64,000 bases of DNA from an uncultured Myxococcaceae bacterium (GTDB taxonomy: Bacteria; Myxococcota; UBA727; JABDBI01): NCBI GenBank assembly GCA_964635635.1, contig CAZWPE010000001.1, positions 107,774 to 171,773 on the forward strand. The letters are read 5' to 3'. The position numbers and the translations under genes were made by a program. This document shows positions 3,430-56,383 of this stretch, piece by piece. The number at the start of each line of letters is the position of its first letter. The stretch's first letter is position 1. The notes beneath the pieces were generated by a model, which worked only from the letters and a program-made list of their open reading frames with translations, ran no database searches and was not told the origin of the DNA.

Positions 3430-4808
3430 TTATACAGTTGTTTGGAACTGTCAAACAACCATGCAGCACCTGGCATTTCTTCTCTCTCTAGAGAAATCTC
3501 TCTTTCAATGTCTTCAAGTTTACTTTGAATTGTTGGATCATTTGGGTGGAATTTCATTAGTAGATTGCGTGCCATGTCGACAGTCTTCCGTGATTCAGCA
3601 TCTAAATCTAAAAAACTCAAAAGAGTTTCTTTGACTTTTTCATCTCTAAAGAAATTAGCGGCTTCATTGCGCACATACTCAGACCTATCCTCTAGGCATT
3701 GAGCAATGGCTTGATGAATCTTGGGATCTTGAGGCTTGATGGCGGCTAAAGCCTGGATGGCGGCTTCTCTTGCTCTCGGATATTCATTGCTCAGGCATTG
3801 AGCAATGGCCTGATGAATGCCGGGAGCTTGAGGTTTGATAAAGGCTAAAGCCCGAACGGCGGCTTGCCTTGCCTCACGATTTTCACGCTGCAGCAATTGA
3901 ACAAGGAATTGATGAATCTCTTGATCTTGAAGTTTGATAGAGGTTAAAGCGTCAACGGCGGCTTGCCTTACAAACCAATTTTCATCCTCCAGGCATTGAG
4001 CAATGGCTTGACGAATCTTGGGAACTTGAGGCTTGATGGCGGCTAAAGCCTGGAGGGCGGCTTGCCTTACCTCCGCATATGGATTCTCCAGGTGTTGAGC
4101 GATGGCTTGATGAATCTTGGGATCTTGAGGGTTGATGGCTTTTAAAGCCTGAACGGCAGCTTGCCTTACACTCCAATCTTTATCCCTCAGGGATTCAACG
4201 ATGACTTGATGAATCTTGGGATCTTGAGGCTTAATCGCTTCGAAGGCACTGATGGTAGCTATGCGTATGTGTGGATTGAGATCATTCAAATACCGAGCCA
4301 TGACTTCAAGGATATCTGAATCGATTGGTTTAACCTTAGCTAATGTTTCTAGAACGTCAACTATGTCTCCTCCTGAAGAACGTTCCGATTGCAATACTTC
4401 TTTAACGAGAGTTATGACAGCAGTTTCGTTACCCTTTTCAGCTGCAGAGCACAATTCAGCAACAGCGTTATTTGGATTTTTGTTGAATAAGCGCTGCCAA
4501 GTGGCTTCTGAGTAGTGCTGAATCCCCTCTTGGAATCCTTTGGAGGTTTTAGCTTGAGTCAAGAGACTTTTTGAAGAGTCACCTGAAAATGCAGCGATAC
4601 GTGCAGTAAAAGCAGGATTTTTAAACAATTCGTTTTTAGGAGCCGCGATGGCTTCTTTCTTGGTTTCAGGTACACGCAAAGGGCTCAAAGCTGCTTCATC
4701 TCTGCTCTGTCGATATTGGTCAGGTAGTTGCTTATACTCATCGCCCTTGCGGTTTTGTTGCTGTTGGTTTTCTTGAACAGAAATTTTTCCAGTAATACCT
4801 ATCTTCAT
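3402..4808 (-). CDS. HEAT/PBS-lyase-like repeat protein
   Basis: About 6-7 tandem 33-aa units (PQDPKIHQAIAQCLE..VRQAAVQALAAIK) typical of HEAT-like repeats. Confidence 0.8.
   Translation of the reverse strand: MKIGITGKISVQENQQQQNRKGDEYKQLPDQYRQSRDEAALSPLRVPETKKEAIAAPKNELFKNPAFTARIAAFSGDSSKSLLTQAKTSKGFQEGIQHYSEATWQRLFNKNPNNAVAELCSAAEKGNETAVITLVKEVLQSERSSGGDIVDVLETLAKVKPIDSDILEVMARYLNDLNPHIRIATISAFEAIKPQDPKIHQVIVESLRDKDWSVRQAAVQALKAINPQDPKIHQAIAQHLENPYAEVRQAALQALAAIKPQVPKIRQAIAQCLEDENWFVRQAAVDALTSIKLQDQEIHQFLVQLLQRENREARQAAVRALAFIKPQAPGIHQAIAQCLSNEYPRAREAAIQALAAIKPQDPKIHQAIAQCLEDRSEYVRNEAANFFRDEKVKETLLSFLDLDAESRKTVDMARNLLMKFHPNDPTIQSKLEDIEREISLEREEMPGAAWLFDSSKQLYNYLNSWFKK
3690..4290 (-). repeat. 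Tandem 99-bp DNA repeats (about 6 copies) encoding the HEAT-like units
   Basis: Recurring caggcattgagcaatggcttgatgaatcttgggatcttgaggcttgatggcggctaaagcc.. with a period of about 99 bp. Confidence 0.75.
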
Positions 4809-4995: not shown

Positions 4996-6192
4996 TTATG
5001 AGCTGCGCTGTAGAGTGCTTCCAATGATTACAACAGGGCTTCCTTGTAGGAATTCAGTAAAATCCAGAAGCTTTGGCTCTGCCAGGTGTTTGAACTCAAA
5101 AATACACGTTTCTTCTGTTCCGAACCAATTTTCCTGATTTACCAACATAAGTTTGTAGTGGTTTTTTAGATTGCGAACTTCAACACGAAAGTGTTTTTCT
5201 TGGTGGACGATTTGAGTACCTAACACTGTTTTTAGCTTGTGTAGATTGTAGGCCAAACTCTTGGCGAAAATTTTAACTTGATTTGGGCGTTTGGCTTTAT
5301 TGAGTACAGGCGCAAAAGACATGTAGGGGTATGCGCTCGAATCAAAGCACTGAGAAAGACCTTTATAGTGAAGTCCTGATTCAGTTTCGAGTGGGGGTAA
5401 AAATCGCTTGATAATCTGCTTTTGGCGGTCTGTGAATTTTTCAAAGAGGTTTAAAACTTTCATATCATTGATGTGGTCACTCTTCAAATTTTTACACCCT
5501 TCGAAGATTTTTTTCGCAGTCATGCCATGTTTGTCTTTAAGGCAGACTAGAGCGGGTGTGATGAATGGATGCGTGAGAAATGCTTCTACCTTCTCTGAAC
5601 TGCGAATAAGAGAGGCAAGATGAAGTGCACTTTGTCCTTCATGATTGATAGCGTCAAAAATAGAAGCTGTCATGTTTGGATGATGAAGTATTTTGATGAT
5701 TTGATTTGCCGAGGCATGCAGCATGTTACGGTGTAAGATAGTTTGCCCAAATGAATCTCGCTTGAGCCAGACGTCTTTTGAAAATCCAAGTTCGTCAAGT
5801 GTTTCAATGTCAGAGCGATCTGCAACGATGTCCATTGCGGTTTGATTATTGCTGTCTTGGATACCAACCACATCTCCTGTGGCAAAAGGATGCTCAATGA
5901 GTGTTTTAAATATGGTGAGAGTAGGCAAAGCTGCTGCATAGTGAAGAACCGTTCGGTTATTGGTGTCTTTTTGGGCAAATGTTTTGGAATCAAAATGCAT
6001 CGAATCTAAAATCCGCTCCACAGGTTCAAGACGTCCTTTTGAGACAGCGATATGCAGGGGAGTTTGAAATGCGTCGTTCAACTGCGTGATTTCGTTCTTG
6101 TCAAAAGTTTCTTCATGCAGTGGTTCTGGCTCGACAATACGCCAGAAGTTAGTGGTTCGGTATCCGCAGCTTGGGAGTGGCGCTTGAAGCAT
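4996..6192 (-). CDS. Ankyrin-repeat protein with a C-terminal domain of unknown function
   Basis: Repeated ankyrin signatures TPLHIAV, TVLHYAA, TILHRNM and SALHLAS. Confidence 0.8.
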   Translation of the reverse strand: MLQAPLPSCGYRTTNFWRIVEPEPLHEETFDKNEITQLNDAFQTPLHIAVSKGRLEPVERILDSMHFDSKTFAQKDTNNRTVLHYAAALPTLTIFKTLIEHPFATGDVVGIQDSNNQTAMDIVADRSDIETLDELGFSKDVWLKRDSFGQTILHRNMLHASANQIIKILHHPNMTASIFDAINHEGQSALHLASLIRSSEKVEAFLTHPFITPALVCLKDKHGMTAKKIFEGCKNLKSDHINDMKVLNLFEKFTDRQKQIIKRFLPPLETESGLHYKGLSQCFDSSAYPYMSFAPVLNKAKRPNQVKIFAKSLAYNLHKLKTVLGTQIVHQEKHFRVEVRNLKNHYKLMLVNQENWFGTEETCIFEFKHLAEPKLLDFTEFLQGSPVVIIGSTLQRSS

Positions 6193-10332: not shown

Positions 10333-10397
10333 ATTTGAAAAACAAATAAGATTTATTTATTATATAAAAAGTTTCAGTGTCTGGTGAGGGGGATCCA

Positions 10398-12899
10398 ATG
10401 AGTCAAAGATTAGGTTTCAGTCCGGCTGAATTCAGAGAACAAGGTGACTACGAGCAAGAGGGTGAGAAACGTGTTTCGGGAAAGGATGCGGGTGTTGATG
10501 TTTATGAGGCGCCCTCTTTGCTGGAACAAGTTTCTAGAGGCTTAACTCCTCAAATTATAGAGAGTTATTTGAAAGAACCGGATGGAGAAGAAAAAACTAA
10601 GCTTCTACAAGCAATGGGCCAAAAAATAAAACCTGAGACATTGTCTAAACTGCCGCCAGAATCAGTGTCGAAACTTCATGAAATTTTTCAGAATAAGGGC
10701 AAACTCGAGGTAAGATGGGCGATCGAGGATGCGCAGTGGGAAAATGAAAAAATGTCGAGGTTTGTGATAGCCCCATACCGACGTAAACTCGATTTTGCAG
10801 ATTTAGAAGAGTATCTAAAAAAAGGAGCGAGTATTAACTTTCGACTGCCCGAAAATAATGCAAACGCAAACGACAACAGTGGCAATTTTCCGGGGATGAA
10901 CCTGATTCAGATGGCATTATCTCTAAATGATATGGATACTGTGAGTAAGCTATTTGCGAGAGGTGCTCAATTTACAGAAGAAGATGCTAATTATATGTAT
11001 CCCCAAGAATATTGGTTGGGCAATGTAAGTTTGGCCCATAGACTCTTGGAGTCTGGTTACACAGATGCTTTTATTTGGCTGATTGATCATGGGGCTAACC
11101 CTAATCAAATCATTTCAAAATATGGGGACCCTTTTGATGCATTGAGCCTAGCGCAAGCAGCTTTAAAAAAAGGCGATGTGATGGCATTTGAAAAACTCAT
11201 TGAAAAAGGTGCTGATATCAACCTGCCATTTCCCCGTACGAGTACAACAGGGGAATATGCGAATAAAACTCTTGCTCAGGTTGTCCTAGAGAGGGGGGAT
11301 ACAAACGCCCTTAGGCTTCTCCTGGAAAAAGGTGTTTCTCCTAACCAAACTTTTCCTTCTGCTTGGAATTCTGAGGCTACCTACAAAGGCATGACTCTTT
11401 TGCAGGTGGCTATGATACTAGGGCATACAGATATCGCTATGCTACTGCTCGATCATGGAGCCGATCCAGATCGAGTCTTCCCAGGGACCATTGATGAACA
11501 CCGTGATTATGCTGGCAGGACACCGATTCAGATTGCTCTGAGGCAGAACAATACGGGGCTGATTGAGAAACTCATCGAGCGTGGTGCATCAAGCAAGGGT
11601 TTAACGAGTCCGTTGACTTTTAAAGCGTTGCGTTTACCACGAGAAGATTTGGAATCGATTAAGCCATTAGAAAATGGCGATAGTATTGAACAAATTATCG
11701 AAAAATCAAAAGATAAAAAATGGATTCAAGAATTCTTTGGAGACCCAAAACCTGCCAACGAAGGAGACCAAAAACCTGTCATTGAATATGTGGACGACCA
11801 TCATTCGAAAAACGGACATACTCGCGAAGACATCATTAACGGTCTTCAGGTTTTTTTCGAAAGAATTCAGAAAAGAGAGGCTGTTCTGGGGACGCCTCCG
11901 TCAAATCAACTTAAAGAGTTAAATGCGTATTATGACAACATGTTCCATCGCTTGCAGCATATTTTTTCGTTCTTAGAACAGAAAGAGATTGCTCAAGATA
12001 TCAAACGGGCTGCTCTCGATATGATTTATGGGGGTTCTTTGGCTTGCGGTACGGCTTGGTTCAATGAGGTTAAGAGTGCCTATGAACTTCTTAAATCGCA
12101 GATTAAAGCACCCCAACAAAGTTCTGCCACAGCAGCAAGCGCTGCAGATGAAAGTTTTCAAAGTGAGTATGAGTCGATCATTGAGCAGCGCTTGTATGAA
12201 TTTAGAAGGCGTTGTTTTGAATCTGCTCTGCCCAACAACAATACGCACACCTATAACGCCTACATGCGCGAGCTGGGGGTTGAGTTTGGGGTGGCGGGAA
12301 AAAATTCAAGCTATGACGATCCAACCGTTGTTCCTATTTCAGAGTACGAAAAAGCTGTTTTCAGACACAAGGTCGAGTCTCTTTATGAGCCAAAACTTAT
12401 CATTGATTTTATATATAAAATTTCCAAAGATAAAACACAAATAGGTGAGGGGATTATCCCTGGTCTGCTTGCTGACTATGGACCTAAAGTAAGCCAAACT
12501 CAAGCTAATAGGTATTTTGTGTTGGAAAATAAGAAGGAAAAAGATGAGCTCAGTGGCGAAGAGTTGAGGGAATATGAGGAACTTACAAAAATTATCTCTC
12601 AGGAAGATGATTATACGGAGATGACGCTTGGAAAAGAATACGAGCCAACCCGAGAAGGCGTGGAATATTTGCTTAAAGCTTTAGGCATATTACGAATTAG
12701 AGACCTGAAAGGGATAAAGCTCGATCCATGGAGCCAATTCTTAATAAGACGTAAACAAAAGGAGCTCGAGTCAGCAGAGGAAGGCTCCGAAAGGCAAAGA
12801 GACCTAAAAGAATGGCTTTCAGAAGCTCAGGCTGAGCAAATTCAAGAAGTTAAGCAAACAAAGAAGGCTTCATCAGCCACAGCTGCCGCTAGTTCTTAA
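10398..12899 (+). CDS. Large ankyrin-repeat protein with an acidic, coiled-coil-rich C-terminus (effector-like); ORF opens at GTG 10377, ATG 10398 preferred
   Basis: At least five ankyrin units (GMNLIQMALSLND.., DALSLAQAALKKGD.., KTLAQVVLERGDTNALRLLLEKGVSPN, MTLLQVAMILGHTDIAMLLLDHGADPD, RTPIQIALRQNNTGLIEKLIERGA). GAGGGGGA lies upstream of the ATG. Confidence 0.75.
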   Translation: MSQRLGFSPAEFREQGDYEQEGEKRVSGKDAGVDVYEAPSLLEQVSRGLTPQIIESYLKEPDGEEKTKLLQAMGQKIKPETLSKLPPESVSKLHEIFQNKGKLEVRWAIEDAQWENEKMSRFVIAPYRRKLDFADLEEYLKKGASINFRLPENNANANDNSGNFPGMNLIQMALSLNDMDTVSKLFARGAQFTEEDANYMYPQEYWLGNVSLAHRLLESGYTDAFIWLIDHGANPNQIISKYGDPFDALSLAQAALKKGDVMAFEKLIEKGADINLPFPRTSTTGEYANKTLAQVVLERGDTNALRLLLEKGVSPNQTFPSAWNSEATYKGMTLLQVAMILGHTDIAMLLLDHGADPDRVFPGTIDEHRDYAGRTPIQIALRQNNTGLIEKLIERGASSKGLTSPLTFKALRLPREDLESIKPLENGDSIEQIIEKSKDKKWIQEFFGDPKPANEGDQKPVIEYVDDHHSKNGHTREDIINGLQVFFERIQKREAVLGTPPSNQLKELNAYYDNMFHRLQHIFSFLEQKEIAQDIKRAALDMIYGGSLACGTAWFNEVKSAYELLKSQIKAPQQSSATAASAADESFQSEYESIIEQRLYEFRRRCFESALPNNNTHTYNAYMRELGVEFGVAGKNSSYDDPTVVPISEYEKAVFRHKVESLYEPKLIIDFIYKISKDKTQIGEGIIPGLLADYGPKVSQTQANRYFVLENKKEKDELSGEELREYEELTKIISQEDDYTEMTLGKEYEPTREGVEYLLKALGILRIRDLKGIKLDPWSQFLIRRKQKELESAEEGSERQRDLKEWLSEAQAEQIQEVKQTKKASSATAAASS

Positions 12900-12988
12900 T
12901 GGAAATGGGTTGTTTTTGTGGCTTTGTTACTAAATCTGTTGTCTACCCGACCGCAAAGTGCTACGGTCCGGCCGCAATAGGAGTTTTT

Positions 12989-13207
12989 ATGGCAGTTTGC
13001 ACCCTTACCGGAAAATCTTGGATGAATGGCAACCGAGTGTCCCATTCAAACATCAAAACCAAACGTAAAGTCAGAGCAAACGTTCAATCGAAGCGTATCT
13101 TCGACGTTGAAACTGGCCGCATGGTTCGCGTCAAGCTTTCAACCCGCGCTCTTCGTACTTTGAACAAAAAGTCACTTTCCGCTTGTCTTGCTGAAATTTG
13201 CGCTTAG
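12989..13207 (+). CDS. rpmB: 50S ribosomal protein L28
   Basis: MAVCTLTGK..GNRVSHSNIKTKRKVRANVQ matches the L28 family. The ORF extends upstream to 12899 but an ATG with aggag RBS is at 12989. Confidence 0.85.
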   Translation: MAVCTLTGKSWMNGNRVSHSNIKTKRKVRANVQSKRIFDVETGRMVRVKLSTRALRTLNKKSLSACLAEICA

Positions 13208-13235
13208 ATTCTCCTCCTAACAAGGAGAATCTAAA
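13205..13235 (+). promoter_or_regulatory. CIRCE-like perfect inverted repeat TTAGATTCTCC-N9-GGAGAATCTAA spanning the rpmB stop to the groES ATG (contains the groES Shine-Dalgarno)
   Basis: 11-bp arms with a 9-bp spacer, the same architecture as the CIRCE/HrcA operator TTAGCACTC-N9-GAGTGCTAA, sharing TTAG..CTAA ends. The rpmB stop codon TAG lies inside the 5' arm. Confidence 0.5.
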
Positions 13236-13522
13236 TGAAGTTCAAGCCCTTAAATGATCGCGTCCTGGTAAAGCGCCTGGACGCTGACGAAAAAACCGCT
13301 GGCGGTCTTTTTATCCCCGATAATGCCAAAGAAAAACCCATGCAAGGCCTTGTGGTTGCTTGTGGGGAAGGCAAAGTTCTTGATAATGGCACAGTAAGAC
13401 CCCTCGATGTCAAAGCTGGCCAAACTGTATTCTTCCGAAAATATGCTGGAACTGAAGTCACCGTTGATGGCGTAGAGCACATGCTCATGCGTGAAGAAGA
13501 AATTTTAGCAATTCTTGAGTAA
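13235..13522 (+). CDS. groES: Co-chaperonin GroES
   Basis: [38 protein letters not shown]. Confidence 0.95.
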
Positions 13523-18834: not shown

Positions 18835-20547
18835 TCACTTCAGATCAAAGAAGTCAACGTAGTAGCCAGGTGCTTCTCCAGTATTCTTTCCAGGATTCGA
18901 ATAGCAAGTAAAGGTCGAGGTTTTATCGTCAAAAGGAAATGTGTAGGCTGTAGGACACGCCTGCTTCATGAATACCAACCAGGGTTGGATATTCGTTGCC
19001 CAAGTAGAATTAGTAGCACTGCAATTGCCTTGAGACGCAAGTACATTGGGCCAGGTGCTTAGATATGGATTGCCAGGAAATGTTGGGCAACCGCAATCGC
19101 ACGAAGTGCCGGATTGATAACACGAGTTAGGCGCAGTGCCTGTGCAGCCAAACATGTCTGAATAAGTGTAGGATGTTCCTGAGATGCTGCCGCACTGAAG
19201 TGGGGATATGTTTGATGTTCCAGGGTTTGTGCCGCATATCTGGTCAGCGCTCCAATAGGCAATAAACGTGCCACACACCTTGGCAACGGTTGAAATGCCA
19301 GTGTTTTGCGCAAGACCGCAGAGTTGTCCGCTAGCGCAATCTGAGTCTTTGCTGCATGAGCAGTATTGATTACCTGCTCCAGTAGGTGAGCCGGAAATAC
19401 AGCTTTTGTTGATGGTAGGTAAAACTTGTCGCAGCAACGTGCTTTGATTTTTGGGGGTGATGCCTGGAATCGAAGGTGTAACACTCCAGCTACAGGCACG
19501 CAGTACACCTAAAGAGTCAGCTTGTGTGAGAGCGCCCGGCGTTGCGCAGAAATAAGGGTCAGTTTGACTCTTGGTTGTTGTGGTTGAGTCAGGTTCCATG
19601 GCAATGCCAATGTTCATGCCATTGATAATACTGACGTCATAATAATCGAGGTTTGGTTGAGGGGCTGTGAATGTGAATTCTGCCAAGCTTGCAGGAGGAA
19701 CTCCACCGGTTCCAGCGTTGCAGCTTCCATCTTGTGGAGCACAGGAGCCATTGTTTGGACAGTCTTCTGCATAAGTGTGACCAGATAGAGGGGTATATCC
19801 TGGGCCGCAGTTAGTTTGAGTGCAAGCTTGACCTGAAATCTGACATTTGAAACCACCTCCATTGTTAATGCATTGATCTCCGATGGTTGTACAAGTAGAA
19901 CATCCAGCGCTATTCGTGGAGCATTCACCTGAGGCACAGTTTTGGCCATTGGAGTCGCAACCAAAGCGTGCAAACAAATTTCCACTCCATTGAACCGAGC
20001 TTAGAGCGTTTGTTTGTCTACCGTGTTTTGAAGAGGCTCCTAAGGGAGCAGGAAAACAAAGTTTCAGTGATTGAGTTGGTGAGAGTTTAGGGGTGTTGGC
20101 GCCAACCATTCTGGGTTGCTTCCAGAAACACTGAAATCCATTGCCCGCTACTGTATTGGTTGCGCATACGCCCAGTGTTCCACAACTCTGTGATGCTGCG
20201 CTGCAGCCGCAGACACCCGTTGGCCCGACCGCATCAGAGCCGGTAATTATACAGTTGTTGCCCATGTTGGCACAGTCCGTATTTTTTCGGCAGAAAAATG
20301 AACCGCTGGTCAGACCTACCCATACAGTTTGCGATGAATTGTTGGTGACAATCATGGGCCTTTCGCCAGTAGAACAAAAATCAAGCACGGGCCGATTGTC
20401 TGGTGGATTGGGATTATTTGGATTATTGGGACCACTTGGGTTATTCGGCCCACTGGGATTGCTAGGCACATTTGGATCATTGCTCTTCGAGCAACCAAGC
20501 CCAACAAGAATCAAAACAACCCAAAACAAACGCATAAAAACCCCCAT
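18835..20547 (-). CDS. Large cysteine-rich lipoprotein with a thaumatin-like C-terminal domain
   Basis: Lipobox LVGLGC. Pro/Asn-rich linker. Thaumatin family signature blocks YDVSIINGMNIGIAMEP and CPTAYTFPFDDKTSTFTC (compare CPDAYSYPQDDxTSTFTC). Confidence 0.65.
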   Translation of the reverse strand: MGVFMRLFWVVLILVGLGCSKSNDPNVPSNPSGPNNPSGPNNPNNPNPPDNRPVLDFCSTGERPMIVTNNSSQTVWVGLTSGSFFCRKNTDCANMGNNCIITGSDAVGPTGVCGCSAASQSCGTLGVCATNTVAGNGFQCFWKQPRMVGANTPKLSPTQSLKLCFPAPLGASSKHGRQTNALSSVQWSGNLFARFGCDSNGQNCASGECSTNSAGCSTCTTIGDQCINNGGGFKCQISGQACTQTNCGPGYTPLSGHTYAEDCPNNGSCAPQDGSCNAGTGGVPPASLAEFTFTAPQPNLDYYDVSIINGMNIGIAMEPDSTTTTKSQTDPYFCATPGALTQADSLGVLRACSWSVTPSIPGITPKNQSTLLRQVLPTINKSCISGSPTGAGNQYCSCSKDSDCASGQLCGLAQNTGISTVAKVCGTFIAYWSADQICGTNPGTSNISPLQCGSISGTSYTYSDMFGCTGTAPNSCYQSGTSCDCGCPTFPGNPYLSTWPNVLASQGNCSATNSTWATNIQPWLVFMKQACPTAYTFPFDDKTSTFTCYSNPGKNTGEAPGYYVDFFDLK

Positions 20548-23237: not shown

Positions 23238-23978
23238 ATGCTCGATATTAAAGATTTACAAGTTCGTGTTGCTGATAAACCAATTTTGAAAGGCCTTTCT
23301 TTTCATGTGAAGCCTGGCGAAGTTCATGCGATTATGGGGCCTAATGGCTCTGGCAAAAGTACCCTTTCACAAGTTTTAGCTGGTCACCCTGCTTACGAAG
23401 TTACGGGGGGAAGTGTCCGGTTTAAAGGCGAAGACTTGCTTGCGATGTCTGCAGATGAGCGGGCTTTGAAGGGCTTGTTCTTAGCGTTTCAATATCCAGT
23501 TGAAATCCCGGGGGTGAACAACACTTACTTCTTGAAAGCCGCTTTGAATGCCAAACGCAAGTCACAGGGCTTGCCTGAAATTGATGCTGTTGATTTCCTG
23601 GGCCTGATTAAGAGCAAAATGGCAGCTCTCAAAATGGATGAAGCCTTTTTGCAGCGAAGTGTGAATGAGGGTTTTTCTGGCGGTGAAAAGAAGCGAAACG
23701 AAGCTCTTCAAATCGCGCTTTTAGAACCAGAGCTTGTGATTTTAGATGAGACGGATTCAGGTCTTGATATTGATGCACTTCGAATTGTTGCTGACTCCAT
23801 CAACTCTATGAGAAGTCCAAATCGTAGCTTTATTGTCGTGACGCATTATCAGCGTTTGCTTGACTATATTGTCCCAGATGCGGTTCATGTTTTACAAAAA
23901 GGCCAAATCGTTCGCAGTGGCCCCAAAGAATTAGCCCTTGAGCTGGAGCAGAGTGGATATGAATCTGCGAGTCATTAA
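23238..23978 (+). CDS. sufC: Fe-S cluster assembly ATPase SufC
   Basis: Walker A GPNGSGKSTL, ABC signature FSGGEKKR, Walker B ILDETDSGLD. Confidence 0.92.
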   Translation: MLDIKDLQVRVADKPILKGLSFHVKPGEVHAIMGPNGSGKSTLSQVLAGHPAYEVTGGSVRFKGEDLLAMSADERALKGLFLAFQYPVEIPGVNNTYFLKAALNAKRKSQGLPEIDAVDFLGLIKSKMAALKMDEAFLQRSVNEGFSGGEKKRNEALQIALLEPELVILDETDSGLDIDALRIVADSINSMRSPNRSFIVVTHYQRLLDYIVPDAVHVLQKGQIVRSGPKELALELEQSGYESASH

Positions 23979-24528
23979 GGCAGGCCAACATGTTGAAGTC
24001 ACCCAGGTGACCTTCGCAGACCAAGACACTGAGCAGCACTGGCGTATTGTATTTGAGGGCGAACATGCATCCTGCAAGTTGAACTTTTTAGATTTGGCCA
24101 AAGGTTCGGCCAAATTGACCACCCATGTTGAAGTGATTCACCAAGCGCCCAACTGCACAAGCACACAGCTTCATAAGGGTTTGTATGCAGATGAATCACA
24201 GGGTTTCTTGAAAGCGCATGTGGTTGTGCCACATGATGCGGTTGGCAGTGATGCCTCGCAGCTTCATAGAAGTTTACTATTGTCTCCGAATGCTCGGGTA
24301 AACGCAGAGCCGCATTTGGAGATTAATACCGATGAAGTGAAGGCCAAACATGGCGCGAGTATTGGTCAGCTGGATTCTGCGTCTTTGTTTTATCTACAGG
24401 CACGTGGGTTGTCTGAAGCTATGGCGAAACGGCTTTTAGTCGGTGCTTTTGCTGCCGAGGTGATTAATCAAATTAAAGATGAATCCGAGCGTACACGCTA
24501 TACAGACCAGGTGATGGCATGGATTTAA
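23959..24528 (+). CDS. sufD: Short SufD-like protein (about 190 aa, C-terminal beta-helix part only)
   Basis: Position between sufC and sufS; C-terminal SufB/D-family similarity (LFYLQARGLSEAMAKRLLV). Much shorter than canonical SufD. Confidence 0.6.
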   Translation: MNLRVIKAGQHVEVTQVTFADQDTEQHWRIVFEGEHASCKLNFLDLAKGSAKLTTHVEVIHQAPNCTSTQLHKGLYADESQGFLKAHVVVPHDAVGSDASQLHRSLLLSPNARVNAEPHLEINTDEVKAKHGASIGQLDSASLFYLQARGLSEAMAKRLLVGAFAAEVINQIKDESERTRYTDQVMAWI

Positions 24529-43472: not shown

Positions 43473-43841
43473 ATGCAAGCATGGTGGATGATTTTGACCG
43501 GAGTTTTGGCAGGGGTAAGTGCAGGGATTTTTGGAATTGGGGGTGGGGTTATTTTAATCCCGATTTTAGTACTCGCATTCAAGTATCCGCAAGTAGTAGC
43601 CAATGGAACTTCACTCGTTGCTCTGTTATTGCCTGTAGGGATTTTTGGGGTGTTGGAATACTACAAAGCCGGTAAAATCACAGGTGAAAACATCAAATGG
43701 GGCTTGTTTATTGCCCTAGGGATGTTTGTGGGAACTTATCTAGGTGCGCGCCTAGCCGTTTTTTTGCCGGTACGCGTCTTAACCAAGCTTTTTGCGGGCT
43801 TCTTGCTTTTGGTCTCGGTGCGTCTTTTTCTCTCACGGTAG
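43473..43841 (+). CDS. TSUP (TauE/SafE) family half-size membrane permease
   Basis: GIFGIGGGVILIPILV motif; four TM segments. Confidence 0.6.
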   Translation: MQAWWMILTGVLAGVSAGIFGIGGGVILIPILVLAFKYPQVVANGTSLVALLLPVGIFGVLEYYKAGKITGENIKWGLFIALGMFVGTYLGARLAVFLPVRVLTKLFAGFLLLVSVRLFLSR

Positions 43842-47603: not shown

Positions 47604-48752
47604 TCAGTTCCCACAAGCCTTAAACCCATCTATGAAACCAATACGATTATTTTTTCGATCGAAATGGATGTATTGGTTTTCCATCACGGCTTGACCTAGA
47701 ATAACGAAATCGCTGCCTGTAGGTGCAAAACCGAATACGCAGAGGTTTTCTTGTGTGCTCTTCATGTAAGATTCTGGGCGAATGGTTAGTTGGAGACCAC
47801 CTTCAAAGGTGAGGATGATATTTGGAAGATTGGCGAGTCTCACACTGCTGCAAACGAGTTCTTTCTCGCCTGCCCAAAATTTTTCGTCTGTGGGTAGATT
47901 GCTATTTGCCGCTTGAATTTGTTTCACCATGGCTGAGTGCATAGCAGATGGGATCGCGCTTACAGTTGTTCCACTGTCTAGGATGGTGCAAGTTCTAGAA
48001 CTTTCAGCTTGAGCACATGGGGTTCCACCATTTGGGTACGGATATTCTGGGAAATCTCCAAGTTTGTTATCCGAATTCACGCTACCGAGATAAGCGGACG
48101 TCGCATTTAAAACATACCAACTTTTCTCTTTAACTGGAGTATAATTGGCGTTTGTAAAGCTACCTAGGGATGAGTTGGTGCCGCCAAAAATAATTTGGCT
48201 GTTACCATCGTGTGCAACGCCACATAAGAGTGTGCTGAATTCATTACTCATGCCAGTTGTGGTAGTTAGATCTGCAAAGAAAGTATGATCCTGATTACCT
48301 TGAGCGACACCCTCATAGGCAAGACCCATGATTTGAGGAGTACATGCACTGCCTGTGCATGACTGGATGCTTCCAATGTAGTAGTTTGGAATCCCTGCAC
48401 CGCAACTGAAATCAACAAAGCCGATGTAATTTTGAACGCTGATTGTTGTTTGACCGCCATAAAATATTGGAAAGGGTGAACCTGTGAGTTCTAGATTGTT
48501 GGTGTTAAATCCGCTGCTTGTATTATCAATGACTAAATTAGAGCTTCCTGTGTCTGCTACTAATTCCATTGTCTGGCCATTGACCACTAGTGAAATGTGA
48601 TATTCGAGCGTAGAGCCGACATTTTGTCTCAGTGCGCTTCTGTTTGTTACAAATACATGCTTGAGGCCGTAGGTTGGGTTACTGCAGGGTGGGTTTGACT
48701 TGCTGCAGGCTATAAACAAGATAATCGAAAAGAGTAAACTAGAAAGTTTCAT
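47604..48752 (-). CDS. Pepsin-like (family A1) aspartic protease lipoprotein
   Basis: Lipobox LFIACS. Two catalytic motifs VADTGSSNLVI (pepsin DTGSSNLWV) and ILDSGTTVSAIP (pepsin DTGTS). Confidence 0.75.
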   Translation of the reverse strand: MKLSSLLFSIILFIACSKSNPPCSNPTYGLKHVFVTNRSALRQNVGSTLEYHISLVVNGQTMELVADTGSSNLVIDNTSSGFNTNNLELTGSPFPIFYGGQTTISVQNYIGFVDFSCGAGIPNYYIGSIQSCTGSACTPQIMGLAYEGVAQGNQDHTFFADLTTTTGMSNEFSTLLCGVAHDGNSQIIFGGTNSSLGSFTNANYTPVKEKSWYVLNATSAYLGSVNSDNKLGDFPEYPYPNGGTPCAQAESSRTCTILDSGTTVSAIPSAMHSAMVKQIQAANSNLPTDEKFWAGEKELVCSSVRLANLPNIILTFEGGLQLTIRPESYMKSTQENLCVFGFAPTGSDFVILGQAVMENQYIHFDRKNNRIGFIDGFKACGN

Positions 48753-50302: not shown

Positions 50303-51082
50303 ATGGCCTTTTGGATATTTTTGTGGGGCGCCTGTATTGGTAGCTTCTTAAACGTTGTTATTCTGCGCCTGCAAAGCAGCGAACATAGCTTCTGGACTAA
50401 GCGGTCTTACTGTTTTCATTGCCATAAGACCATTCAATGGCATGACTTGGTTCCTATATTTTCTTGGATTTGGTTGCGTGGGCGGTGCAGATTTTGCCAC
50501 GCTCGAATTTCGCCAAGATATGCCCTCGTTGAGTTGTTAACAGGCTGTTTGGCGGCTGTTAGCTGGCTTTATGCGCCTGATTTGATGGGTATGGCTGATG
50601 TTTTTGTGTTTTGTGGCCTGCTTCTAGCAATAGGACTGATTGATTTAGATACCTGGCTTATTCCTGTTCCACTGTTGGTTATTTTGATAGCCGTTGGGCT
50701 TGGGTTTGGATTGTTGGAGGGAGAAGCTGAATTCCTTAATCGTTTATGTGGGTTAGTGCTGGGATTTGGTACTCTGGCGCTATTTTTATTGGTTTCGACT
50801 TGGGTTTTGCGTCGCTTAGGCAGGATTGGGCCTGGCGAGTATGCCATGGGTTGGGGGGACCCGGTCTTATTGGGTGGAATTGGCGCGGGTTTGGGTTGGT
50901 TTCCGCTATCGTTTGTAGTCACCTTAGCCAGCCTTCAGGCGGTTTTGCTATATGGATTCTTTTCGTGGGCAAGAAAGCCGCTGCCAGATGACACATGGGT
51001 TCCTCCGGAGCGTTCAATGCCATTTGGACCATTTTTAGCACTCACTGGAGTTGAATTGAGTCTGTATTATTTGTTATATTAA
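50303..51082 (+). CDS. pilD: Type IV prepilin leader peptidase (A24 family)
   Basis: GSFLNVVILR, zinc-binding CxxC..CxxC (CFHCHK..CRFCH), DUF1805/peptidase A24 TM core. Confidence 0.85.
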   Translation: MAFWIFLWGACIGSFLNVVILRLQSSEHSFWTKRSYCFHCHKTIQWHDLVPIFSWIWLRGRCRFCHARISPRYALVELLTGCLAAVSWLYAPDLMGMADVFVFCGLLLAIGLIDLDTWLIPVPLLVILIAVGLGFGLLEGEAEFLNRLCGLVLGFGTLALFLLVSTWVLRRLGRIGPGEYAMGWGDPVLLGGIGAGLGWFPLSFVVTLASLQAVLLYGFFSWARKPLPDDTWVPPERSMPFGPFLALTGVELSLYYLLY

Positions 51083-51087
51083 AATTA

Positions 51088-51510
51088 ATGAAAGTATTTA
51101 TACTGATTATTTTTAATTTTACAGTCATCTTTGCGTTTAGTTTGTTTTTTGAAAGAAGCAATCAGGGTGATTTATTTAGAAATCAACAGCAGGAAAAAGC
51201 GCTCTTAAAAAATCAGGAAGTCTGGTTTAGGGCTTCCGATTATATTGCGCGCAGAGATTTTTTGGCATTGCATTTAAGTGAATTGGGGCAGGAGATCGAA
51301 TCGAATCGGACTCGAATTTCAGATTTAGCGCGCTGGATTAATGAAACACCCAAAAATATTTCTCTTTATGAATTATCGATGGATGAAGATTCAATCGATG
51401 TATCTGGTTTGGCTAAATCAGAAAAAGCCTTGCAGTCTTATCTGCAAGATCGTGATTTAAAACTTCTCTCGGAGAAGGGAAAAGTCTTTAAAGCCTCGGG
51501 GGCACTATGA
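51088..51510 (+). CDS. PilN-like type IV pilus assembly protein
   Basis: N-terminal TM helix, coiled coil, and C-terminal ISLYELSMDEDSIDVSGLAKSEKALQSYLQ resembling the PilN periplasmic domain. Confidence 0.5.
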   Translation: MKVFILIIFNFTVIFAFSLFFERSNQGDLFRNQQQEKALLKNQEVWFRASDYIARRDFLALHLSELGQEIESNRTRISDLARWINETPKNISLYELSMDEDSIDVSGLAKSEKALQSYLQDRDLKLLSEKGKVFKASGAL

Positions 51511-52355
51511 GATCAGTGTTGAAGTCAATACTCGTTATTTTAGTGATTGTGGCTAGCTGGGTAGGTGCTTACGAGTTGGTTTTTAAAAATCAACTTGCTG
51601 AGAAAGCTCGGCTGGTTAAACAAATGCGAGAGCAAGCTTGCGTGGTTGATGAACTTAAAAAGCTCTCCCGTGAAGCTACTCCTGCGCGCTATGAGAGTAT
51701 TTTGAGTCCAGCTTTAGAAACATTGGTAGAAAAAGTTCCGGCTACTCCGGATGTTTCAGAATTGATTACAGAATTAACTGCGTTAAGCAAGAAAGCAAAA
51801 ATTAGTTTGGTGAGTTATGAAACAACTCAAAATCAGGAAAGTATTCTTGCGGAAATTCGAGTTGCAGGCGGAGTAAAGCAGGTATTTGAATTTTTGGCGG
51901 GTTTGTCTAATCTTGAACGTTTGGTTTTGGTTGAACGTTTCAACTATGAAAACCGTAGCGCTGAAATCTGGTTGAAAGCTCCGTGGGGCCAGTTCAATCT
52001 GGGTGAAGTTTTAGCGAGGCATATACCCTACCACTGTGGAGCTGCTGAACAGTTAAATTTTAGTTCAATTGAGATTCCGTGGCTTTCAGTGTTGAGTCAA
52101 AAAATTTCTCCAGTTACTCGAAACCCATTTTTGGAGCGTTCTCAACATATAACTGCACGCGGCCTACATTTAGTGGGCCTTGTGCAGCAACGCTCAGCTT
52201 GGTTGGCATTGGTTGAAGATGAACATGGTTTTGGTCAAGTGATTCGTGTTGGGGATAAGCTGTCTAATGGCTTTCAAGTGCTAGGAATCTCTCGGCAAGG
52301 TCTTTCACTGGCGAGTGGGAACATTCGGCAAACTATGACTTGGAGGAAACCATGA
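51507..52355 (+). CDS. PilO-like / PilP-like fusion protein
   Basis: TM helix plus PilO-like core (IRVAGGVKQVFEFLAGLSNLERLVLVERFNY). C-terminal PilP-like beta-domain (HLVGLVQQRSAWLALVEDEHGFGQVIRVGDKLSNGFQVLGI). Confidence 0.5.
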   Translation: MRSVLKSILVILVIVASWVGAYELVFKNQLAEKARLVKQMREQACVVDELKKLSREATPARYESILSPALETLVEKVPATPDVSELITELTALSKKAKISLVSYETTQNQESILAEIRVAGGVKQVFEFLAGLSNLERLVLVERFNYENRSAEIWLKAPWGQFNLGEVLARHIPYHCGAAEQLNFSSIEIPWLSVLSQKISPVTRNPFLERSQHITARGLHLVGLVQQRSAWLALVEDEHGFGQVIRVGDKLSNGFQVLGISRQGLSLASGNIRQTMTWRKP

Positions 52356-52687
52356 TGCGTTTATTTTTGACCATGTTTCTAATCTCGAGTTTAGGTTTTG
52401 CACAATCTATTGTTTTGGGGCCAAGGAGACATAAAGTTCCAAAAGGCCTGATTAAAAAGCCGATGATTGATCGGCGAAACCCAAAAATCGACTTTGTTGA
52501 GTTTAGGGAAGCGACCATGGGAAACGTGCTTTCATTAATTAAAAAATATGGCGGCATTAAAGGTCAGTATGAGATCGATATGTCCGCCGAGGTGAATTTA
52601 AGACTGGTGGATACGAATTGGTCCGCTTTGAGAAATACCGTTCTAGAAGAAGCAAGACCGCTTGAAAAATCAATGCGCTCGCGGTAG
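52340..52687 (+). pseudogene. Secretin N-terminal (STN/Secretin_N) domain-only ORF; likely truncated pilQ remnant
   Basis: Signal peptide plus IDFVEFREATMGNVLSLIKKYGGIKGQYEIDMSAEVNLRLVDTNWSALRNTVLEEA. Stop at 52687, efp begins at 52699, and no secretin C-domain follows. Confidence 0.45.
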
Positions 52688-52698
52688 TAACTGCCTTC

Positions 52699-53256
52699 AT
52701 GTACAGTACATCCGACTTTAAGAGGGGCCTTAGAATACTTTTTCAAAACGAGCCCTACCAGATTGTTGAATTTGAACACCACAAGCCAGGTAAGGGCGCT
52801 GCGATTGTTCGAACCAGGCTTAAAAATTTGCTTACAGGCCTTACAATAGACCCAACTTTCCGTTCGGGTGACAAAGTAGATGTGCCAGACCTTAACGACC
52901 AAGAAGTTAATTTCTTGTATGAGTCAGATGGCGTGTATCACTTCATGAATCCTGTTTCTTTTGAACAGTTTGAAGTGCCTACTAAAATTTTGGGTGAAAG
53001 TGCGCAGTTTTTGATTGAAGGCCTAACGGTCTCATTACTCTTTTATATGGGTCGCGCGGTTAATATTGAGCTGCCGAAGAACGTTGTGCTTGAGGTAACC
53101 TCATGCGACCCTGCTGTGCGCGGGGATACTGTCAGTGGTGCAATGAAGCCAGCAACTTTCCACACGGGTTTCAGGTGTCAGGTCCCATTGTTTGTCAATG
53201 AGGGTGACAAGATTAGGATTGATACCCGAACTGGTGAATATTTAGAGCGTGCCTAA
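52699..53256 (+). CDS. efp: Elongation factor P
   Basis: MYSTSDFKRGL..HHKPGKGAAIVRTRLKNL with the conserved K/R beta-hairpin. Confidence 0.9.
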   Translation: MYSTSDFKRGLRILFQNEPYQIVEFEHHKPGKGAAIVRTRLKNLLTGLTIDPTFRSGDKVDVPDLNDQEVNFLYESDGVYHFMNPVSFEQFEVPTKILGESAQFLIEGLTVSLLFYMGRAVNIELPKNVVLEVTSCDPAVRGDTVSGAMKPATFHTGFRCQVPLFVNEGDKIRIDTRTGEYLERA

Positions 53257-53448
53257 ATATCTATCACCACCACTTGATGCTCATGAGACTGTTCAGTCTC
53301 CCCAGTGTCGTCTGGTGACGGGTATTCTAAGTCTGACTCGTCTGGCGTTGGAAGCCTAACGCTTTCATCGTGTTTTTTTTCTCGTTCGCGTTTGCGTTCG
53401 TTTTCATCTTCAATCACCCAAGGGGGTGGAAGTCGGTTGGCCAATCTC

Positions 53449-54486
53449 ATGAGTTTAGAATATCAGGCTTTTCAGTTTGCGAAATCAAAACATGCCTCTG
53501 ATCTTGTGTCAGATATTCGTGAGTTGTGGGAGGCTTTGACTGTTGAGCGCTCAGAAGGCCTGGCTCAGTACTTTCGCAAGCCAGGTTTAAGACGCGCTTA
53601 TCTTGGTTACTATGTTCCAATGTATGCGATGAAAATCGCGGCTCTTTTGCGTGATTTGAATTTGCCGCTTAAAAAACCGAATGTACTGGATTTAGGCGCA
53701 GGACCTTTATCGGCTGTCTGGGGCGCCCAGATTGCATATGGCGAATTAGGCCAAGTTCTCGCGGTAGACCAAGATTTAGGACCTATGAAGGCAGGTCTTG
53801 AGTTGCTTGATGCAATTTCACCTGTGAAAAATATTCATTTGGCGCGTGCAAATCTCAAGGGTCCGCCGAATTTTTGGAAACCAAGGTTCAAGCCAGATTT
53901 AATTTTGATGGCTCATGTTCTAAATGAGTTTGGTTCTGGTGAGCGATATTTAGAAGATAAAAAGATGCTCTTGGTTCATGCGGTGAATCAATTGGCGCCG
54001 GACGGTATTATTGTGGTTATAGAGCCAGCCTCAAAGGTTCCGACCCGTGATTTAATGCTGCTCAGAGACTGGTTATATGAAAGTGGCCAAGTGGAAATTT
54101 TAGCGCCTTGCCCGCTCAATGTTGCACGCTGTCCTTTGTTGGTAGACAGAAACAACTGGTGTCATGCTGATCTGCCGTATCAGCGTCCTGAGGAATTGCG
54201 AGAAATCGATTCGAAAATTGGTTTTGAGCGAGAAGTTTTAAAATGCAGCTATCTAGTGATTGCTCGCCGTGGATTTAAGTACGAAAAAACGAATTGCCGA
54301 ATCGTGAGCGGTCATATGAACGCACGTGGAGTAGATAGACGCTATGCATGCATGCCAGAGGGTTTGATGACTCTTTCCCAAAATGTTCATGAAAAACCAG
54401 TCATATTGGCATCACTCAGGCGCGGCGAGTCGGTAAGCCCAGAATCCTGGCCCAAAAAGCTTGTAAATATTTCCAAAGAATCTTAA
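53449..54486 (+). CDS. Rsm22-family SAM-dependent methyltransferase
   Basis: VLDLGAGP SAM motif and C-terminal Cys cluster APCPLNVARCPLLVDRNNWCH. The upstream Ser-rich extension (53305-53448) is judged non-coding. Confidence 0.7.
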   Translation: MSLEYQAFQFAKSKHASDLVSDIRELWEALTVERSEGLAQYFRKPGLRRAYLGYYVPMYAMKIAALLRDLNLPLKKPNVLDLGAGPLSAVWGAQIAYGELGQVLAVDQDLGPMKAGLELLDAISPVKNIHLARANLKGPPNFWKPRFKPDLILMAHVLNEFGSGERYLEDKKMLLVHAVNQLAPDGIIVVIEPASKVPTRDLMLLRDWLYESGQVEILAPCPLNVARCPLLVDRNNWCHADLPYQRPEELREIDSKIGFEREVLKCSYLVIARRGFKYEKTNCRIVSGHMNARGVDRRYACMPEGLMTLSQNVHEKPVILASLRRGESVSPESWPKKLVNISKES

Positions 54487-54498: not shown

Positions 54499-55557
54499 AT
54501 GGCAGAGCAGGGCGAAGAGAAAACAGAAGAGGCGACTCCGCAGAAGTTGCGCAAGGCGCGTGAGAAAGGCCAAATCGCCAAGAGTCAAGATTTGGCATCA
54601 GCGTTTGTTTTCTTTTCTGCGTTGGGTGCTCTGGTTGTTTCACTGAGCTGGATGGTTCAGAAGATAAATGACCTTTTTATGCTCAGTGTCCAGTCAATGC
54701 ATGCAGAGCATATGGGCAAGGCAGTTTTAACTGTTGTCCGAGAAGGTGGCTGGACTTGGTTGCTCGTATCGATCCCAATCGTACTAGGTGCTTTTATTGG
54801 TGCGCTGGTGGGAAACTATTTGCAGGTTGGCTTTATGTTTACGCTGGAGCCACTGAAACCTCAGTTTAACAAAATTAACCCGATCAACGGTATTAAGCAG
54901 ATGTTTAGTGTCAAGCGTTTGGTCGAGCTTTTGAAGCAGATGGCCAAGTTTATCATGGTTTCTGCTGTGGTTTATTTAGTGCTCAAAGACGCAGTGTTTA
55001 ACTTAGTAAACATGCAAAGTCTGCAGCTGACCGAAGCGTTGCCAATTATTTATGCGATTATTAAGGATATTTTTCTTAAAGTTGCTGTGTTGTTTTTGAT
55101 TATTGCTGTGCTTGACTGGTTTTGGCAGCGGCATAGTTTTTTAAAAAGCATGCGGATGACCAAGTACGAAATCAAACAGGAATACAAAGAGTCAGAAGGG
55201 GACCCTCAGCTAAAATCAGAGCGAAAGCATTTGGCTCAAGAGCTCATTATGCATGGCAGCCAGCAAGCAGTGAAGAAAGCAGATGCCGTGGTAACCAATC
55301 CAGATCACTATGCCGTGGCGATTAAATATGACACGAAAGAACACGCAGCTCCAATTGTTGTCGCGAAGGGAATGAACAAGAATGCGGAGGCAATTAAAAA
55401 AATTGCAAATCAATATCGCGTTCCGATTATTAGAAATGTTAGTTTAGCCCAGGCACTTCATAAGCTTGACTTAGACGAAGAAATCCCAGAAGAGCTTTAT
55501 GATGCTGTCGCGGAAGTTTTGAACTTTGTTTACGAGTTGAGGAAGAAAAATGGCTGA
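54499..55557 (+). CDS. Type III secretion export-apparatus switch protein, SctU/YscU/FlhB family (autocleavage motif variant NPDH)
   Basis: Four TM helices plus cytoplasmic domain with VVTNPDHYAVAIKYD (canonical NPTH) and C-terminal PIIRNVSLAQALH. Confidence 0.85.
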   Translation: MAEQGEEKTEEATPQKLRKAREKGQIAKSQDLASAFVFFSALGALVVSLSWMVQKINDLFMLSVQSMHAEHMGKAVLTVVREGGWTWLLVSIPIVLGAFIGALVGNYLQVGFMFTLEPLKPQFNKINPINGIKQMFSVKRLVELLKQMAKFIMVSAVVYLVLKDAVFNLVNMQSLQLTEALPIIYAIIKDIFLKVAVLFLIIAVLDWFWQRHSFLKSMRMTKYEIKQEYKESEGDPQLKSERKHLAQELIMHGSQQAVKKADAVVTNPDHYAVAIKYDTKEHAAPIVVAKGMNKNAEAIKKIANQYRVPIIRNVSLAQALHKLDLDEEIPEELYDAVAEVLNFVYELRKKNG

Positions 55558-55912
55558 TAGAATTTCGGGCCCCTTGGCCAGTGGTGTTGGACTAGGAAGC
55601 GTATCGCCAGCTGATATCGAGTCGCTTAAACCAAAACCGGAGCAAGCTCAGCCCTCAGCTATTGCGCCATTGGCTACGCAAAACCAGTTGAAAGCAGCAG
55701 GTTCAGGCATGCGTGCCCTTGATTCTGGAAGACTTGAATCGCCAGGTAAGACTTTTATGTCAACCATGGCAACTCGTCACCATGTCGGACGCATACTGCA
55801 GAAACTGCCTCAGACAGAGGATAACTTTGGGAAGCTCGAGCCAATGGTGAAAATTCTCAAGTCCTATCATGCGTGGACCAACGATATCGTTAGAGTTTTG
55901 GGGAGAGTATGA
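55550..55912 (+). CDS. Hypothetical protein translationally coupled between sctU and the TPR chaperone gene
   Basis: ATGGCTGA overlap with the sctU stop and ATGA overlap with the downstream start. Confidence 0.5.
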   Translation: MADRISGPLASGVGLGSVSPADIESLKPKPEQAQPSAIAPLATQNQLKAAGSGMRALDSGRLESPGKTFMSTMATRHHVGRILQKLPQTEDNFGKLEPMVKILKSYHAWTNDIVRVLGRV

Positions 55913-56307
55913 ATACTGCTGTGCAATATACCCCGGAAGAACTTCAGTCGATTGCCCAAATCGCTTACTACATGATGATGCAGGGTAAGATGAAAGATGC
56001 CCAGACGTTGTATGAAGGGCTAGTGGCTTTAGACCCTTCACAAGAATATTATTTCAGAGCGTTGGGTGTTCTCGCTCAAAAAAATAAGGACAGCCAACTG
56101 GCGCTGCGTCATTTTGGTTATGCGATTCAATTGGCGCCTGGTAAACCTGAAGGGTATGTGAATCGCGCAGAGATTTATATTTTTCTAGGCCAACCGGAAG
56201 AAGCTGCTGCTGATCTCAAAGAGGCCTTGAATAAAATGAGTCGCCAGGACCAAATGTTATCTCAAAAGGCCTGGGCTCTCTATAGAAGCCTTAAAGCGGG
56301 TGTATAA
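55909..56307 (+). CDS. TPR protein resembling class II T3SS chaperones (SycD/LcrH/CesD family)
   Basis: 132 aa with three TPR-like units (AQIAYYMMMQGKMKDAQTLYEGLVALDP, YYFRALGVLAQKNKDSQLALRHFGYAIQLAP, GYVNRAEIYIFLGQPEEAAADLKEAL). Size and organisation match SycD-like chaperones. Confidence 0.55.
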   Translation: MNTAVQYTPEELQSIAQIAYYMMMQGKMKDAQTLYEGLVALDPSQEYYFRALGVLAQKNKDSQLALRHFGYAIQLAPGKPEGYVNRAEIYIFLGQPEEAAADLKEALNKMSRQDQMLSQKAWALYRSLKAGV

Positions 56308-56383
56308 CTTCGTCATTGCGAGGCACTTTAGTGCCGTGGCAATCCATAAATCCTGGACTGCTTCGCGATGCTCGCAGTGACGA

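Follow-up and report, generated by a model that had tools for sequence, protein, structure and literature searches.

Introduction

Myxococcus xanthus possesses a needle-less type III secretion system (T3SS), designated T3SS* (MXAN_2434-2464), which comprises SctRSTUV, SctN, SctL, SctQ, SctD, SctJ and SctI together with several LcrH homologues (PMC10433427; PMC3459982) and has no secretin, needle or translocon (PMC10433427). Systems of this "Myxo" type were placed at the root of the non-flagellar T3SSs by Abby & Rocha 2012 (PMC3459982). In this study, 64,000 nucleotides of DNA from an uncultured Myxococcaceae bacterium (contig CAZWPE010000001.1, positions 107,774 to 171,773 of the forward strand; hereafter the window) were analyzed, in which a gene for an export-apparatus switch protein of the SctU/FlhB family (sctU) is followed by a gene for a small basic protein (orfX, product X) and a gene for a protein of three tetratricopeptide repeat (TPR) units. 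An earlier note, made from the DNA sequence alone, had described the three genes as an orphan T3SS module and had associated it with Chlamydiae-like injectisomes.

Judged from gene order and sequence comparison, the module very probably originates from a "Myxo"-type non-flagellar T3SS operon. As a whole, the explanation that we favor is probable, though well short of certain: a translocated "Myxo"-type sub-operon, whose SctU would work with an export gate encoded elsewhere, and whose X and TPR protein would be a substrate or regulator and its chaperone.

Results

Three-gene module and its relatives in apparatus operons

The three genes lie on the forward strand: sctU at 54499-55557 (352 aa), orfX at 55550-55912 (120 aa) and the gene for the TPR protein, a SycD/LcrH-like three-TPR chaperone candidate, at 55909-56307 (132 aa). 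The sctU stop and the orfX start overlap by 8 nt at the junction ATGGCTGA, the orfX stop and the TPR-gene start by 4 nt (ATGA), and purine-rich Shine-Dalgarno-like stretches are located immediately 5' of both internal starts. The co-directional arrangement and both overlaps, already given in the earlier note, were confirmed by open reading frame (ORF) calling and direct reading. Likewise, the isolation of the module between a methyltransferase gene and clpX was borne out: Pfam annotation of essentially all large ORFs revealed no other T3SS or flagellar gene in the window, and tblastn with FliP, FliQ, FliR, FlhA, FliM and FliN from a bona fide flagellar locus gave no match there.

A metagenome scan with an alignment of the TPR protein yielded 80 loci, which were screened locally for export-apparatus genes. 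In loci L033, L042, L049, L065, L077 and L093, sctU-X-TPR was found inside export-apparatus genes; furthermore, an SctT homologue is encoded upstream of the trio in L043, L063 and L089, and an SctV homologue downstream of it in L048. According to Pfam, the clustered order begins with an unassigned gene, SctL (FliH/T3SS_SCTL), SctN (T3SS ATPase C-terminal domain), SctO (YscO-like, E=1e-26), SctP (FliK-C/HpaP), SctQ (FliM+FliN) and a FliO-like gene, and continues with SctR, SctS, SctT, one or two reverse genes, SctU, X, the TPR protein, a 430-aa protein (some loci), a second TPR protein (TPR2) and SctV. The distance from X-TPR to the SctV homologue downstream is 0.2-3 kb (L042, L048, L049, L065, L077, L093), and FHA/YscD-like proteins are also encoded in L077 and L093. 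Flagellar rod, hook and motor genes and a secretin were not seen by Pfam in the clustered loci examined, and the secretin SctC, the needle SctF and translocon genes were detected neither in the window nor in those loci, of which only ±10 kb were visible.

The FliO-like gene stands just before sctR (L033 5410-5997, Pfam FliO, E=1.9e-6; L049 3731-4300; L065 3334-3897). To our knowledge, FliO is regarded as flagellum-specific; its occurrence in these operons therefore fits a basal position of the systems.

The reverse gene just upstream of the orphan sctU in L011, L013, L020 and L023 is homologous to the reverse gene that intervenes between sctT and sctU in L042, L049 and L065. Moreover, the efp-linked orphan SctUs nest within the clustered SctUs in a bootstrapped neighbor-joining tree of 32 sequences, rooted on flagellar FlhB and containing no reference injectisome families (ingroup support 99-100%, orphan monophyly only 54%). 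The shared reverse gene and this nesting identify the orphan module as the orthologue of sctU-X-TPR in a single ancestral operon. Judged from the gene orders, that operon was disrupted at two sites, first between sctT and its reverse-strand neighbor and second behind the TPR gene.

Other fragments of the system were also encountered. X-TPR was found with no sctU in the available flanks (2.5-9 kb upstream) at L032 2539-3571, L046 5135-6191 and L074 9386-10369, and the TPR gene alone in L021, L022, L029, L030 and L039. As X-TPR or the TPR gene alone thus also occurs away from sctU, scattering is normal for this T3SS, the genes of which were scattered repeatedly, and in different ways, in other lineages.

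SctU: family assignment and conservation

The earlier note had called the first gene product a full-length SctU/FlhB homologue, and Pfam Bac_export_2 (PF01312) indeed matched residues 6-344 over the whole profile (1-335/335, E=2e-117), covering both the membrane and the cytoplasmic domain. Among the NCBIfam models, the protein passed the cut-offs for TIGR01404 SctU (376.5 vs 358) as well as TIGR00328 FlhB (359 vs 349.25). The difference between the SctU and FlhB model scores was +17.5 bits for the window protein and +13 to +34 bits for five relatives, in contrast to the true flagellar FlhBs of L007, L008 and L009, which gave -32 to -83 bits. Such an intermediate profile is expected of "Myxo" systems, and the scores support the view that the window SctU leans to the non-flagellar side.

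A solitary gene of this family could also be an flhB left behind when a flagellum was lost, and besides the FlhB cut-off being passed, the best full-length PDB matches are flagellar FlhBs (173-202 bits vs 121 bits for SpaS, the only full-length injectisome protein there), and Joint Genome Institute pipelines label the homologues FlhB. This explanation is nevertheless very improbable, because the SctU model consistently beats the FlhB model in this clade, opposite to real FlhBs, because orthologues reside in sctL-N-O-P-Q-R-S-T-U operons that include YscO-, HpaP- and YscD-like genes but lack any for flagellar structures, and because SctU is accompanied by SycD-type TPR chaperones and conserved at the level of EF-P. 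A scan with SctU of a genome collection that does not include the source genome returned only four distant flagellar loci, and a literature search for SctU or FlhB orphans among Myxococcota retrieved nothing relevant.

Across related loci, SctU orthologues are 76/64/61/56/53% identical, compared to 85/72/73/66/58% for EF-P, and SctU conservation is second only to EF-P, above that of Rsm22, PilD and HolB from the same loci. The parts conserved over 120 homologues are the N-terminal segment, the loop between transmembrane segments 2 and 3 (TM2-TM3 loop), the linker and the C-domain. Out of 59 positions that at least 12 of 13 reference sequences (clustered SctUs and flagellar FlhBs) have in common, the window SctU retains 56, which is in the same range as bona fide clustered or flagellar members. 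Since it is conserved almost like EF-P and keeps 56/59 near-universal positions, SctU is probably functional; the alignments show a gene under strong purifying selection and not a decaying one.

The autocleavage motif of SctU reads NPDH (N267 P268 D269 H270; 55297-55308, forward strand), a variant of NPTH. The motif, as singled out in the earlier note, is real, but the substitution is no special feature. Among the 120 best homologues, 119 bear the motif, with NPAH in 86, NPTH in 21, NPVH in 5, NPSH in 4, NPNH in 2 and NPDH in 1, while N, P and H are invariant in all 119. In Xanthomonas HrcU, cleavage was abolished by N264A and only slightly affected by T266A (PMC3040844). Because the third residue varies in the clade and the effect of T266A was slight, NPDH appears to be an ordinary variant at a permissive position, which does not imply cleavage of NPDH itself. 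A distantly related orphan SctU (L016 3853-4932, 49% identity) likewise carries NPDH, and aspartate at this position therefore arose at least twice.

TPR protein

The best specific model for the TPR protein was LcrH_SycD (TIGR02552, E=5.5e-23), with 81.2 bits against a cut-off of 104.8, and the SctY model gave a weaker match (E=1.7e-8; 34.9 bits, cut-off 70). In sequence-only searches, generic TPR proteins such as OGT outscored T3SS chaperones. The AlphaFold model (23-sequence alignment; predicted local distance difference test, pLDDT, of 94) comprises seven helices that form three TPR units and a cap. In a Foldseek search of the PDB, SycD, PcrH and AcrH were among the top 11 matches (template modeling (TM) score 0.87-0.89, root-mean-square deviation 1.2-1.7 Å, ~126 residues), Scc3 and IpgC were also present, and generic TPR proteins ranked lower (TM about 0.7-0.8). 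Comparison of the predicted structure with SycD, one of the checks put forward earlier, thus gave SycD, PcrH and AcrH as the best PDB matches. The assignment as a class II-type chaperone accordingly stands in part: the modeled resemblance to SycD/PcrH/AcrH is solid at the fold level, whereas sequence-based membership in the LcrH_SycD family is borderline.

The orthologues P0162 and P0174 are named CesD/SycD/LcrH family chaperones by NCBI. Identities of the TPR protein across related loci (76/61/54/42%) indicate a conservation similar to that of SctU, and its isoelectric point (pI) is near neutral (6.6). A hydrophobic, translocator-like partner gene was found in none of the loci examined, the sole conserved neighbor being hydrophilic X.

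X protein

X matched no entry of Pfam, NCBIfam or PDB, in agreement with the earlier description of this ORF as a protein of unknown family, and among 1.8 billion representative proteins it had no relatives beyond its own orthologues. A word-indexed search gave three close matches, and an exhaustive search of representatives added two orthologues and P0187, a spurious repeat protein that was rejected as a homologue. A profile of 37 X sequences retrieved only designed helical bundles and noise from PDB and Pfam. By position, orthologues of X directly follow sctU in every related locus, and they are connected by transitive BLAST; the family comprises proteins of ~120-160 aa, and at about 50 loci its gene is immediately followed by that for the TPR protein.

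In the 37-sequence alignment, P40 is invariant within a Φ-x-P-Φ motif and R61 within an LRL-x-x-P motif, and …IY-x-R-x-L-S-x-S-K-G is common to the C termini of most members. PxLxxP, the motif bound by class II chaperones, was looked for in X and not found; X has the conserved Φ-x-P-Φ instead. X evolves fast (31% identity to X of L002) and has lost ~40 central residues in the window lineage. It has a pI of 9.9, a grand average of hydropathy (GRAVY) of -0.28 and no membrane segment. In the structure prediction proposed for this ORF, AlphaFold (3-sequence alignment, pLDDT 55) placed helices at 65-85 and 93-118 with low to moderate confidence, while residues 1-64 were mostly disordered. With its N-terminal half disordered and its C-terminal part helical, the modeled architecture is substrate-like. 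A ruler function of X was considered and ruled out, since a distinct SctP/FliK-like gene exists in the clustered operons.

Genomic neighborhood

Upstream, the module is flanked by efp (52699-53256, forward strand) and a gene for an Rsm22-like methyltransferase (about 53449-54486, forward strand), both assigned by Pfam and regarded as conserved synteny anchors, not as secretion functions. Downstream, clpX-clpP is convergent. The mechanical call of the Rsm22-like ORF starts with GTG at 53305 and ends at 54486; on an identical Logan contig a 345-aa gene starting near 53449 was called, so that the first 48 codons of the 53305 ORF are probably untranslated. The 76-nt spacer between the TPR gene and clpX contains a stable stem-loop (56310-56383, no strand assigned; -36.1 kcal/mol, z=-3.1 vs shuffles), a candidate bidirectional terminator according to RNA folding. 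It has no T-run and was not reported by a consensus terminator scan, and counts from the promoter and terminator scan were not above those of shuffled sequence.

The order efp-rsm22-sctU-X-TPR recurs in L002, L098, L004, L097 and L014 (SctU identity 76%, 70%, 64%, 63% and 61%, respectively), and sctU-X-TPR recurs in another neighborhood in L016 (49%). The shorter order efp-rsm22-sctU is retained in L002, L004, L011, L013, L014, L020, L023, L027, L097 and L098; on L011 and L013, typical Myxococcota contigs of higher G+C content (53-56%), it takes the form pilMNOPQ-…-aroQ-efp-rsm22-[two reverse genes]-sctU-X. The idea that sctU is coupled in function to rsm22 or efp was rejected, as genes intervene in L002, L011 and L013.

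An eroded type IV pilus cluster occupies 50303-52687 of the window (pilD, a weak PilN-like ORF, a PilO-like ORF of 282 aa and an ORF of 115 aa). The last of these corresponds to just a portion of the truncated, secretin-less PilQ encoded in L014 and L097, and pilMNOPQ is intact at the corresponding place in L011 and L013. A gene for a radical-SAM lysine-2,3-aminomutase-like protein (LAM_C) lies a few kb from efp at L014 13071-14153 and L097 14727-15809; it could be a candidate EF-P modification enzyme and is unrelated to the T3SS module.

Within ±10 kb of the module in L002, L004, L014, L016, L097 and L098, no apparatus genes were found, and L014 and L097 have TPR2 but not the sctV that usually comes after it. 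These observations would suit a stand-alone survivor: the rest of the T3SS would have been lost in a reduced, apparently host-associated lineage, and SctU-X-TPR kept for another job, such as a membrane-anchored regulatory or proteolytic switch with no protein export. Besides the lack of a further apparatus gene near the module in the window and in every close relative, and the unaccompanied TPR2, the eroded adjacent pilus cluster speaks for this scenario, as the lineage does lose envelope machines. Against it, 56 of the 59 positions that are universal in gate-bound homologues are kept in the N-terminal segment, TM2-TM3 loop, linker and C-domain, as in clustered members. According to structural work, FlhB/SctU assembles onto the export gate formed by FliPQR/SctRST (PMC7064499), and a gate-independent role for FlhB/SctU was not found in the literature searched. 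As scattered T3SS genes are moreover common in this group, we consider such a survivor unlikely, though deserving some weight.

Organism and lifestyle

The taxonomic reading is based on database labels and synteny. The closest SctU homologues (64-96% identity) belong to metagenome-assembled genomes labeled Myxococcota, Myxococcaceae or Deltaproteobacteria by NCBI, and the window has a G+C content of about 45%. Eukaryote-like proteins are encoded at 2236-3429 (+), 3402-4808 (-), 4996-6192 (-), 10377-12899 (+), 18835-20547 (-) and 47604-48752 (-), the set being made up of a carnitine/choline acyltransferase-like, a HEAT-repeat, two ankyrin-repeat and a thaumatin-domain protein and a eukaryotic-type aspartyl protease; in L002, L004 and L098 the aspartyl protease gene is likewise paired with holB. 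In L004 (64% SctU identity), a gene for an ATP/ADP translocase (Pfam TLC; 11923-13398) lies directly 3' of the TPR gene and is followed by a gene for a 1948-aa Lcl_C-domain protein; L006 encodes a translocase at 2985-4460. Transporters of the ATP/ADP translocase family are typical of energy-parasitic intracellular bacteria. Together, the eukaryote-like proteins, the G+C content of about 45% and the translocase in a relative suggest a host-associated lifestyle of this Myxococcota lineage.

Two further ORFs of the window are incomplete. A 196-aa SufD-like ORF (23938-24528) spans only positions 74-232 of the SufBD core, and a 122-aa TauE-like ORF (43473-43841) reaches no further than position 110 of a 237-position profile; they could be pseudogenes or mis-called starts.

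The earlier note had reasoned from dispersed T3SS genes and a class II-like chaperone to a Chlamydiae-like setting with translocators. In full, this would mean a contact-dependent injectisome encoded at scattered loci, with the TPR protein as class II chaperone for membrane translocators. The TPR fold is indeed nearest to translocator chaperones, scattered T3SS loci are known in Chlamydiales (PMC3459982), and the ankyrin, HEAT and aspartyl protease genes of the window or its relatives, together with the ATP/ADP translocase of L004, suggest a eukaryotic host. The Chlamydiae-like link was not upheld, however: the closest relatives are labeled Myxococcota or Myxococcaceae, the pilMNOPQ-efp-rsm22 synteny is Myxococcota-wide, and the ancestral gene order is that of the myxobacterial needle-less T3SS; this "Myxo"-type cluster includes a FliO-like gene, and in no locus examined were genes for a secretin, needle or translocon seen. 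Nor does the chaperone imply translocators, since several LcrH homologues occur in the M. xanthus T3SS*, which lacks needle, secretin and translocon (PMC10433427), and since the chaperone-adjacent X is hydrophilic and devoid of a membrane segment. A Chlamydiae-like injectisome is therefore quite unlikely.

Discussion

Starting from the origin of the module, its orthology to clustered SctU genes, the purifying selection and the chaperone-like fold, we infer the following course of events. In the ancestor of this Myxococcota lineage, sctU-X-TPR would have been cut out of the apparatus operon and would have landed downstream of efp-rsm22. SctU, as an autocleaving substrate-specificity switch, would dock onto an export gate of SctRST and SctV, assumed to be encoded at another site of the genome. 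X may be an early exported substrate or a gate-binding regulator, and the TPR protein, by analogy, may hold X in its concave groove before export and thereby keep it export-competent, the invariant proline motif of X being the candidate TPR-binding site. The X-TPR pairing would then resemble that of YscX with YscY next to sctV, or of SycD/PcrH with their substrates. The tight translational coupling through overlapping frames would fix the proportion of SctU, X and TPR protein and enforce their co-expression.

Several results weigh against this explanation. SctR, SctS, SctT, SctV, SctN, SctQ, SctJ and SctD were seen neither in the 64-kb window nor within ±10 kb of nine related orphan loci. The TPR protein remains under the curated cut-offs of both LcrH_SycD and SctY, and searches of Pfam, NCBIfam and PDB revealed no resemblance of X to YscX or to another known substrate. 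Finally, genes decay beside the module in this lineage, the pilus cluster being reduced and pilQ lost, which makes a loss of the T3SS conceivable. Along these lines, the lineage might have reduced or dispersed an ancestral needle-less T3SS, such that SctU-X-TPR acts independently of a gate, or such that the myxobacterial T3SS for predation was re-tooled on a eukaryotic host with X-TPR as a gate regulator throughout the lineage; this extension is speculative and, in our estimate, unlikely.

If the translocated sub-operon is the right explanation, what looks like an orphan gene for secretion in fact belongs, in rearranged form, to a T3SS family that is already known and basal in evolution. The example calls for caution, as a single sctU with a TPR chaperone should not be read as a sign of an injectisome or of Chlamydiae. 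In addition, X and the SycD-like TPR protein form a conserved, unnamed pair that travels with sctU across many Myxococcota-like lineages. For the needle-less T3SS*, itself poorly understood, the pair is a concrete substrate or regulator candidate. Should the bacterium truly be a host-associated myxobacterium, the fate of its T3SS would be informative on the repurposing of secretion systems.

Comparison with known systems

Chlamydiales share with the window lineage the dispersal of apparatus genes over several loci and an apparently host-associated way of life. They differ in phylum and T3SS family, and whereas chlamydial sctU adjoins sctV, the window sctU stands alone with X and the TPR gene.

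In Yersinia, the pair yscX-yscY is located just upstream of yscV (order YscX-YscY-YscV). As in that pair, a small protein of ~120-160 aa precedes a small TPR chaperone, the two lie between sctU and sctV in the clustered relatives, and the SctY model matches the TPR protein weakly. Unlike in Yersinia, the SctY score is about half its cut-off (34.9 vs 70), X has no YscX similarity, the TPR structure is nearest to SycD/PcrH, and sctV is absent from the window. With the class II chaperones SycD/LcrH, PcrH, AcrH and IpgC, the TPR protein has in common its size, three TPR units with a capping helix, the TM scores of 0.87-0.89 and LcrH_SycD as best model; it differs in falling below the family cut-off, in the lack of an adjacent hydrophobic translocator gene and in its near-neutral pI of 6.6. 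X-TPR thus recalls YscX-YscY-YscV and class II chaperone-substrate pairs in position and architecture only.

Compared by description, the closest likeness is to the "Myxo" T3SS and the T3SS* of M. xanthus: the taxonomic neighborhood, an SctU intermediate between flagellar and injectisome models, an ancestral operon with SctL, N, O, P, Q, R, S, T, U and V plus LcrH-like TPR proteins, and secretin, needle and translocon genes unseen in the loci examined here. In contrast to M. xanthus, the organism of the window, at about 45% G+C, looks host-associated and not like a soil predator, and in contrast to the "Myxo" systems, its sctU-X-TPR is detached from every other apparatus gene and placed after efp-rsm22. 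The system is therefore of an already known kind, the needle-less "Myxo" T3SS, and what is unusual here is the physical detachment of sctU-X-TPR.

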